Shown in pieces: positions 18,753 to 19,353 of a stretch of 64,000 nt of DNA (positions within the stretch are counted from its first letter, which is position 1; every line of letters begins with the position of its first letter). Position numbers and translations under genes: made by a program. The DNA comes from a virus (taxonomy: Duplodnaviria; Heunggongvirae; Uroviricota; Caudoviricetes), in the IMG/VR virus record IMGVR_UViG_2880378312_000006, one strand, 5' to 3'. The notes below the pieces were generated by a model. That model was not told where the DNA came from. It searched no databases and saw nothing but the letters and a program-made list of their open reading frames with translations.

Positions 18753-18941
18753 TTATCCAGCCGGTATTTCGTTATTCAGGTACAGCGATACTTTGTTTAA
18801 CGGGAGACATTCACCGGAAATTTTTTGCTCGTCTCTTGCCTGATGGCAGGATTCTTTACTGGCATAAATTCCGGTAATCACATTCTGTGGCTCACCTGTT
18901 ATAAGAAAAACCGTCATCATCAGTGCAAACGCTGAACTCAC
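18753..18941 (-). CDS. ydfD: YdfD-like small protein (62 aa)
   Basis: Directly downstream of dicB as in K-12 Qin; hydrophobic N-terminus; ends ...NNEIPAG. Confidence 0.5.
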   Translation of the reverse strand: MSSAFALMMTVFLITGEPQNVITGIYASKESCHQARDEQKISGECLPLNKVSLYLNNEIPAG

Positions 18942-19126
18942 TGCTGCCCTCCGAAAATGCCAAGTTCAAGAAGGGCAATTCTGGAGAGTATGGAATTATC
19001 ATTGAGAAGATAAGGCTCATATTTTCTCATCCTGATGGCGTCTTCAGTAAACTCCCGGTTACTGAGCAGAATACCAATATTAAAACACCCTTCAGACGTA
19101 TTAACGTTTGGTAGTGACGTTTCCAT
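18938..19126 (-). CDS. dicB: Cell division inhibitor DicB homologue, 62 aa
   Basis: METSLPNVNTSEGCFNIGILLSNREFTEDAIRMRK... matches K-12 DicB (MKTLLPNVNTSEGCFEIG...FTEDAI) in sequence and length; lies downstream of DicF. Confidence 0.85.
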   Translation of the reverse strand: METSLPNVNTSEGCFNIGILLSNREFTEDAIRMRKYEPYLLNDNSILSRIALLELGIFGGQQ

Positions 19127-19295
19127 TATCGCGTCCTCAACAATGAATTTTGTGATGCGGTGCCTGGTGCCTCCAGGTGACGTTAACCAGTTAACAATTA
19201 ACGCCGGATACAGAGAATCCACCCATAACACTGTTTTTGGTTTTAACTGTTCCGCGTGCGCTCAGCCGCATTCACCACATCACAAAATTCACTTT

Positions 19296-19353
19296 AAAAA
19301 GGGCGGCAGAGCAGTCACGGAGTAAAACTGATACCGCCAAACGTCACCAGAAA
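19296..19353 (-). ncRNA. dicF: DicF small RNA (53 nt plus U-tail)
   Basis: Reverse complement of 19301-19353 reads tttctggtgacgtttggcggtatcagttttactccgtgactgctctgccgccc followed by ttttt; matches DicF as I recall it; upstream of dicB as in Qin. Confidence 0.85.

Follow-up and report, generated by a model that had tools for sequence, protein, structure and literature searches.

What place does a DicF small RNA (sRNA) gene, followed by dicB and a ydfD-like gene, hold in a prophage that looks complete, given that these cell-division inhibitors are those of the defective Qin prophage of Escherichia coli K-12? The question is raised by a stretch of 64,000 nucleotides (nt) from a virus assigned to the Caudoviricetes (IMG/VR record IMGVR_UViG_2880378312_000006), referred to below as the window. 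As the original prediction proposed, positions 18753-19353 bracket exactly DicF, dicB and the ydfD-like gene. Very probably, the locus is one of several dicBF-type modules already recognized in E. coli O157:H7, and the prophage that carries it in its pL-type operon is lambdoid, structurally intact and part of a ydfJ cluster.

The first member of the module, the 53-nt DicF gene, lies at 19301..19353 on the minus strand. Its sequence, read from 19353 to 19301, recurs letter for letter at the Qin locus of K-12 (53 of 53 positions), and the mismatch that direct alignment might have revealed was sought and not found. The Rfam family RF00039 (DicF) matches 19352..19301 on the same strand over its whole model (1-52 of 52) with 76.7 bits, well above the gathering score of 48 (E 3.6e-15 for the 64-kb window), and the same scan returned no second DicF copy within the window. 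The U-tail that had been anticipated is present as U5 (TTTTT, 19296..19300 on the minus strand, read from the sequence). In the predicted fold, a 15-nt single-stranded 5′ tail precedes a terminator hairpin (-15.9 kcal/mol, z = -2.3); the pairing regions are placed in the 5′ tail and the loop, and the hairpin doubles as an intrinsic terminator.

The best-known target of DicF offers a further comparison. The ftsZ region from -200 to +60 is identical in O157:H7 and K-12, and nt 24-53 of DicF are predicted to form a duplex with ftsZ positions -29 to -1, spanning the GGAGAG site, with an energy of -27.9 kcal/mol that was equalled by 17 of 1000 shuffled sequences. This predicted duplex, which bears out the suggested check of DicF against its ftsZ site, agrees with the genetically validated pairing in K-12 (PMC5069750). 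The pairing test was restricted to this segment because the energy of the whole-length duplex proved uninformative (65 of 500 shuffles were equally good) and was dropped as a test of significance. The DicF-bearing prophage also carries a gene for a PerC-family regulator of 104 amino acids (aa; 37719-38033, plus strand). Since EHEC DicF is reported to activate pchA, whose product is a PerC homolog, the regulator gene's leader and early coding region were tried as a DicF target, and the pairing was not clearly better than in shuffled sequences (17-36 of 500).

Downstream of DicF, at a distance of 174 nt from the end of the 53-nt RNA, begins dicB (18938..19126, minus strand, 62 aa), which is recognized by Pfam, by PHROG (phrog_1251), by alignment to K-12 and by the reference annotation as dicB. 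Its start is the internal ATG at 19126 of a mechanically delimited 97-aa open reading frame (ORF; 18938..19231), and a Shine-Dalgarno sequence, GAGGA, resides at 19138..19134. The 62-aa DicB homolog that had been proposed is matched by the Pfam DicB family (PF05358) from residue 1 to residue 62 with 115.7 bits (cut-off 27; E 7e-34). Protein identity to K-12 DicB is 58%, with residues 1-33 well conserved and a largely different C-terminal half. Immediately after dicB, as predicted, comes the ydfD-like gene (18753..18941, minus strand, 62 aa), whose GTG start overlaps the dicB stop in the sequence GTGA. Its product matches DUF1482 (PF07358, 53.8 bits, cut-off 25, E 2e-14) and phrog_1092 (114 bits), and aligns with K-12 YdfD at 45% protein identity with the hydrophobic N-terminus kept. 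At the nucleotide level, identity to K-12 is 64.6% for dicB and 55.6% for ydfD; both alleles share approximately 92% nucleotide identity with those of the PPompW prophages of Shiga toxin-producing E. coli.

The position of the module is that of the pL operon in phage lambda, between a CI-type repressor gene with a candidate pL/OL on one side and genes for a RecE-like exonuclease, xis and int on the other. Along the minus strand, the repressor gene (20996..21634; 212 aa, with a helix-turn-helix (HTH) and a peptidase S24 domain by Pfam and PHROG) is followed by a ydfA-like gene of the DUF1391 family, the first of the operon (20554..20703; PF07151, 102 bits, 88% identical to K-12 YdfA), and by a second gene of 212 aa (19904..20539), which matches phrog_2151 over its full length, has no Pfam match and is intact relative to the reference. 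Then follow the non-coding block that contains DicF, dicB, the ydfD-like gene, the full-length exonuclease gene (16216..18660; 814 aa, with Exonuc_VIII and Rv2179c-like domains, complete by comparison with the reference), xis (15906-16151) and int (14798-15925); these last two, assigned by annotation transfer at 100% identity, close the early-left operon. A 69-aa gene on the plus strand (19691..19900; phrog_4274, 173.7 bits, annotated in the reference) separates the 212-aa gene from the DicF leader. It is convergent with pL transcription, and Rac-type phages also have an opposite-strand gene (rac10, sieB) at this position.

Candidate control sites flank the repressor gene. A palindromic 18-mer, TGTTTT-N6-AAAACA, occurs exactly twice in the 64 kb, once toward the ydfA-like gene (20912-20929) and once toward cro (21634-21651), and each copy overlaps or adjoins a match to a sigma-70-like promoter. 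These pairs could represent OL/pL and OR/pR. The putative pL (TTGACC-17-TAAACT, 20911..20883, minus strand), found in a promoter scan, is overlapped by the candidate OL operator at 20912-20929, and the candidate OR operators and pR (TTGACT-18-TAAACT) occupy 21634..21697 on the plus strand, with the promoter match at 21668..21697, upstream of cro (21726-21965). RefSeq annotates only the C-terminal 112 aa of the repressor (20996-21334), though the 212-aa ORF with its HTH is open. A gene with an antirepressor domain is located at 36070-36636.

The surrounding prophage is one of O157:H7. The chromosome of strain MB9-1 (NZ_CP040107.1) matches the 1-kb module region at 100% identity, and the window as a whole corresponds to it at 99.97% identity over 1-31982 and 99.7% over 31982-64000. 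According to the reference annotation, the lambda-like prophage extends from int to dinI (62346-62585). Its first part comprises xis, the RecE-like exonuclease, the DUF1482 gene, dicB, the 212-aa gene, the DUF1391 (ydfA-like) gene, the CI-type repressor and cro; these are followed by ydaT, O, P, hok/sok, DUF968, rusA and a DUF1133 protein that is Q-like by PHROGs, then by two tRNAs, a TerB-like gene, an SASA-type esterase, holin, lysozyme, Rz and the PerC-family regulator, and finally by terminase, portal, protease, capsid, a full lambda-type tail, lom, tail fibers and three DUF1076 (NleG-type) genes. All 63 of the 63 reference prophage coding sequences are full-length in the window and free of stops, and lom is whole, unlike its split counterpart in MB9-1. 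Gene sets for integration, immunity, replication, late antitermination, lysis, packaging, head and tail are thus all present, and the impression of a complete prophage holds by gene content.

Similarities to the K-12 Qin dicBF locus (ydfABC-dicF-dicB-ydfD) are concentrated in the module itself. Both loci have the identical DicF, a leader and spacer that are 98-99% alike, a YdfA-type gene, and the order dicF-dicB-ydfD with overlapping stop and start codons. As to location, ydfJ′ abuts the window prophage at one end, and an ompW fragment lies next to int at the other. They differ in their repressors, which in Qin is the 135-aa DicA, lacking a protease domain, and in the window the 212-aa protein with HTH and S24 domains; the two share 37% identity, and only over the 65 residues of the HTH, so that the DicA/DicC type of immunity is not found here. 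Likewise, the ydfA-ydfB-ydfC series upstream of dicF is reduced to the ydfA-like gene, with the 212-aa gene and the opposite-strand 69-aa gene replacing ydfB and ydfC. Unlike Qin, the window prophage also keeps all morphogenesis and lysis genes, and its DicB and YdfD are the diverged versions described above. K-12 ydfE was considered as a remnant of the window exonuclease and rejected, there being no similarity between them. The description "Qin-like" in the original prediction therefore applies to the module, with its DicF, leader, spacer and YdfA-like gene, but not to the immunity region, ydfB/ydfC or the exonuclease.

The same succession of CI, small ORFs, DicF, dicB, ydfD, exonuclease VIII and xis recurs in lambdoid phages that have been isolated, namely Tritos, mEp460_ev081, Evi, HannyBb and PhiR42_1; in Tritos, three small ORFs stand between CI and DicF, and DicF is annotated as such. 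These phages differ from the window in having K-12-type dicB and ydfD alleles and a short, DicA-type repressor. Thus, while the prophage does look complete, the presence in it of inhibitors known from a defective prophage, a contrast implied in the original prediction, is no surprise, since isolated temperate phages such as Tritos and mEp460 carry the same arrangement. Published work describes multiple dicF or dicBF copies in the prophages of O157:H7 Sakai and EDL933 (PMC5069750; PMC10448788; PMC7873438), and O157:H7 is reported to produce four DicF orthologs from different prophages (PMC10448788; PMC7873438). The window carries one such copy and shows no difference in kind from those of Sakai, EDL933 and 86-24. 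The 1-kb region is matched in 4716 of 5426 complete E. coli genomes, about 1000 of them with at least 80% query coverage, and a 58-mer containing DicF occurs in 3965 of the 5426, in up to seven copies per genome and with at least 99% identity in 3051 records; between 61 and 76 records of the phage collection have the region. The locus is an already documented feature of O157:H7 and of lambdoid phages, and it is nothing new in kind.

Because DicF and the sequences on either side of it scarcely differ from K-12, the K-12 processing signals appear to be retained and the biochemistry established there is probably transferable. Transcription would most likely begin immediately beyond the CI-type repressor gene, from a promoter under repressor control, and then cross the ydfA-like and 212-aa genes into a conserved, structured leader. 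From this transcript, RNase III and RNase E would excise the 53-nt DicF as they do in K-12, where RNase III produces a 190-nt species, RNase E generates the 5′ end of the 53-nt RNA, and either termination or RNase III (in a 72-nt form) yields the 3′ end (PMC10448788, PMC5069750). For the window DicF, the 3′ end could likewise arise in two ways, through its own terminator hairpin and U-tail or through a cut by RNase III in a long stem that follows. Read-through RNA would carry dicB, ydfD, the RecE-like exonuclease, xis and int. DicF, together with Hfq, is expected to pair through its 3′ part at the ftsZ ribosome-binding site and to block synthesis of FtsZ. Other DicF targets are xylR, pykA and manX in K-12; in enterohemorrhagic E. 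coli (EHEC), pchA and stx2A are reported (PMC10448788, PMC6832061, PMC7873438). As in K-12, DicB would send MinC to the septum and inhibit ManYZ, and YdfD would act as a small membrane lysis protein (PMC10448788, PMC6832061, PMC7873438). In a phage capable of development, the module would correspond in both place and function to kil of lambda or kilR of Rac, such that lifting of the repressor would halt host division for a time and probably exclude superinfecting phages.

The non-coding block merits separate consideration. Relative to K-12, the 137-nt leader (19490-19354) is 97.8% identical, DicF 100% and the 174-nt spacer 99.4%, while the region upstream of 19490 falls to 75%; an RNA block that is 98-100% conserved therefore stands beside strongly diverged dicB and ydfD protein genes. 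Parts of this block are also found separately in other phages. The leader proper (19357..19478, minus strand), delimited by K-12 identity and by a covariance model built from 18 phage copies, lies inside the counterpart (approximately 19490..19301) of the 190-nt DicF precursor that RNase III generates in K-12 (PMC10448788). The model matches the leader once in the window, with 146 bits, and the leader has no Rfam family. In a pattern scan, at least 120 IMG/VR contigs contained the leader, of which 105 were usable; in 74 of these, DicF with zero to two mismatches adjoins it, and the window allele is the commonest. Little covariation is seen in the leader (3 of 23 pairs), in part a consequence of the seed pattern, which imposed conservation. 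A role of the leader as a put-like antiterminator was considered and is unsupported, given that the model finds a single copy in the window, none downstream of pR, and none in HK022.

On the other side of DicF, the dicF-dicB spacer (19142..19295, minus strand) resembles the RNA family STnc100, as indicated by a sub-threshold Rfam match, its fold and covariation. The match to RF02076 (19094-19303, minus strand) covers the full model with 38.4 bits (E 4e-7), short of the gathering score of 47, and the corresponding spacers of K-12, Tritos, Rac-SA53 and 75/02 and the P1 region likewise score 33-44 bits, below threshold. The spacer folds with a closing stem of 21-23 bp (5′ arm 19295..19273, 3′ arm 19162..19142) that begins right after the DicF U-tail and ends a few nt short of the dicB Shine-Dalgarno sequence. 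This stem is the probable RNase III site from which the 3′ end of a 72-nt DicF and a short dicB leader would result: a cut 19 nt beyond the DicF terminator, as in the 72-nt form, falls within it, and its location after the U-tail is consistent with the reported RNase III end. The same prophage contains a bona fide STnc100 in its late region, upstream of the SASA-type esterase gene (32052-32224, plus strand, 104.7 bits). When eight of these STnc100-like spacers were aligned with this STnc100, a common four-helix structure of 30 pairs emerged, in which 96.6% of cells are paired and 12 pairs are compensatory; none of 500 shuffles was as good, and slid controls of the alignment reached 30-40% paired. 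The window spacer differs from STnc100/PasD (RF02076) in that it sits in the messenger RNA leader directly upstream of dicB rather than beside an esterase gene. A 2026 preprint links STnc100 with the PasD sRNAs and makes no mention of dicF or dicB.

In other phages, elements of this kind stand before different genes. The gene directly after the STnc100-like element is dicB in the window, Qin and Tritos, kil or kilR in Rac-SA53, 75/02, 666R9 and phiSTEC1589, and tciA in P1 and D6. In locus positions, the element spans 2490-2723 in Rac-SA53, 2589-2787 in the Shigella Stx phage 75/02, 2001-2200 in vB_EcoS-666R9 and 1975-2172 in D6. Rac kilR, the Kil genes of Stx phages and lambda kil share with the module the early-left operon site upstream of recE or exo and the inhibition of FtsZ, although DicB and the Kil proteins have no relation to each other. 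A DicF-like hairpin, the same STnc100-like spacer, or both stand ahead of kil in Rac-SA53, Shigella phage 75/02 and 666R9, and the Rac hairpin scores 41 bits, under the DicF gathering score. In phage P1, the leader element directly follows the C1-controlled Pban promoter (locus positions 1996-2115; 104.7 bits with the leader model) in a region labeled "dicF-like region" in the record, and an STnc100-like element is situated before tciA; P1 differs in having another terminator in the DicF slot and no dicB. Overall, these patterns suggest, as a lead rather than a demonstrated function, a modular arrangement of leader, terminator and spacer before toxic early genes. In tentative terms, DicF could be the middle piece of an RNA cassette in the early operons of temperate enterobacterial phages, composed of the leader, an exchangeable slot for a terminator or sRNA, and an STnc100/PasD-related four-helix element with a stem suited to RNase III, and placed before unrelated host division or "host-killing" genes (dicB, kil/kilR, tciA).

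An alternative reading concerns the way in which DicF acts. Conceivably, its hairpin serves mainly as a cis-acting terminator or processing signal that meters expression of dicB, ydfD, exonuclease, xis and int, the sRNA being secondary. The hairpin and its U5 tail do make a canonical terminator, and terminated and read-through transcripts both occur in K-12 (PMC10448788). In a few of the usable contigs, moreover, the slot between leader and spacer holds unrelated terminator hairpins that lack ftsZ complementarity (duplexes of -15 to -22 kcal/mol, versus -28), and different terminators follow the same leader in P1 and in an Stx2c phage, where the leader is conserved at locus positions 2007-2128. 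However, most copies show no variation in the loop or in the single-stranded 5′ tail, parts that are dispensable for termination, and the roles in cis and as an sRNA are compatible with one another. A predominantly cis-acting DicF is rather unlikely, while being the strongest of the alternatives.

The reading of the locus as a dicBF-type module of an intact lambdoid prophage has several points against it. We infer, rather than observe, the promoter and operator, the processing sites and expression of the window copy on induction. DicB and YdfD are presumed to be active: they share only 58% and 45% identity with the K-12 proteins that have been tested, and the second half of DicB has little in common with its K-12 counterpart. 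No N-like antiterminator was recognized in the window that would carry transcription beyond the DicF terminator to dicB and int. Alignment of the repressor to lambda CI retains the catalytic Ser and Lys, yet at the cleavage site it reads Q-A-A where lambda has Q-A-G; SOS (RecA-stimulated) induction is uncertain, as cleavable repressors have Ala-Gly at the position of this Ala-Ala. In Qin, mitomycin C leaves the dicB promoter uninduced, and induction comes instead through the antirepressor Rem (PMC10448788). Finally, k-mer matching detected no direct repeat of 17 nt or more between the int-side and ydfJ-side junctions that could serve as att sites. Junction matches of 11-16 nt were rejected as an att core, all of them lying on one diagonal within dinI-like homology. 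Since the flanks are also heterologous, with a 126-bp ompW fragment (14630-14755) beside int and a truncated ydfJ at the tail/effector end (62700-64000), the competence of the prophage for excision is uncertain. The odd flank arrangement is explained by the published clusters of O157:H7 prophages at ydfJ, in which ompW-derived attB sequences lie inside prophages (Nakamura et al.; PMC8112680).

Several of these points would also fit a module that is a silent passenger, permanently repressed in a prophage that looks complete yet is defective, with no consequence for phage or host. The lack of att repeats between unlike host fragments (ompW′ by int, ydfJ′ at the other end), the location in a rearrangement-prone cluster (PMC8112680) and a repressor without the Ala-Gly cleavage site all point that way. 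Against this stand the intactness of every prophage gene and the evident constraint on the non-coding block. In addition, two studies report that EHEC dicF copies are produced and affect virulence gene expression (PMC10448788, PMC7873438), and K-12 Qin, far more decayed, still expresses DicF (PMC10448788). A silent passenger is improbable. Nothing was found in favor of a chance resemblance to DicF with small ORFs that do not represent genes; this reading is already refuted, with practically no probability left to it, by the exact 53-mer, the Rfam and Pfam E values (3.6e-15, 7e-34 and 2e-14) and the RefSeq annotation of the genes.

Additional features of the prophage and its surroundings lie outside the module. 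In keeping with the layout of ydfJ clusters (PMC8112680), the segment from 1 to 14700 holds the end of a neighboring prophage (tail fibers at approximately 1-1950) and an exchangeable effector locus that comprises nleA, espM1, nleG, a DUF1076 gene, an integrase remnant and remnants of IS66, IS630, IS3 and IS256. At the tail-fiber end of the prophage, three tandem DUF1076 genes of the NleG type, for type III secretion effectors (60181-62178, plus strand), are followed by the dinI-like gene (62346-62585, minus strand). The nin region contains a hok/sok type I toxin-antitoxin system (26562-26883, plus strand; sok RF01794, 113.5 bits; Hok, 51 aa, 26731-26883). Downstream of the Q-like region, a tRNA-Met(CAT) (31030-31105, plus strand; tRNA-Ile in RefSeq) and a tRNA-Arg(TCT) (31206-31282, plus strand) precede a TerB/TciA-like gene (31452-31880, plus strand), a layout that recalls Stx phages and the tRNA-tciA region of P1; no stx genes are present. 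Outside E. coli, 247 bp of the 254-kb Aeromonas phage AP1 (MT713136.1, 249906-250152) are 98% identical to DicF and the spacer, which is odd for this host and may be an artifact of assembly or contamination.

As a textbook phage-borne division inhibitor, the locus carries little weight as a discovery. Its practical value lies in annotation: RefSeq, through the PGAP pipeline, annotates dicB and the DUF1482 gene and gives no DicF feature (NZ_CP040107.1 3004292-3004855, corresponding to approximately 19127-19690 of the window), and the feature is likewise unannotated in five other genomes that were checked. For work on dicBF, the locus offers a natural comparison, combining a K-12-identical RNA with different DicB and YdfD alleles, a CI-type instead of a DicA-type repressor, and an intact prophage, and it could serve to ask what role the module plays in a phage still able to develop. 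A modest clue to the processing and translation of a toxic gene comes from the relation of the dicB leader to STnc100. If the cassette proposed here is real, the conserved RNA block beside diverged proteins would reflect selection on RNA processing and on translational control of that gene, and the dicB leader would be a previously unrecognized relative of the STnc100/PasD sRNAs.

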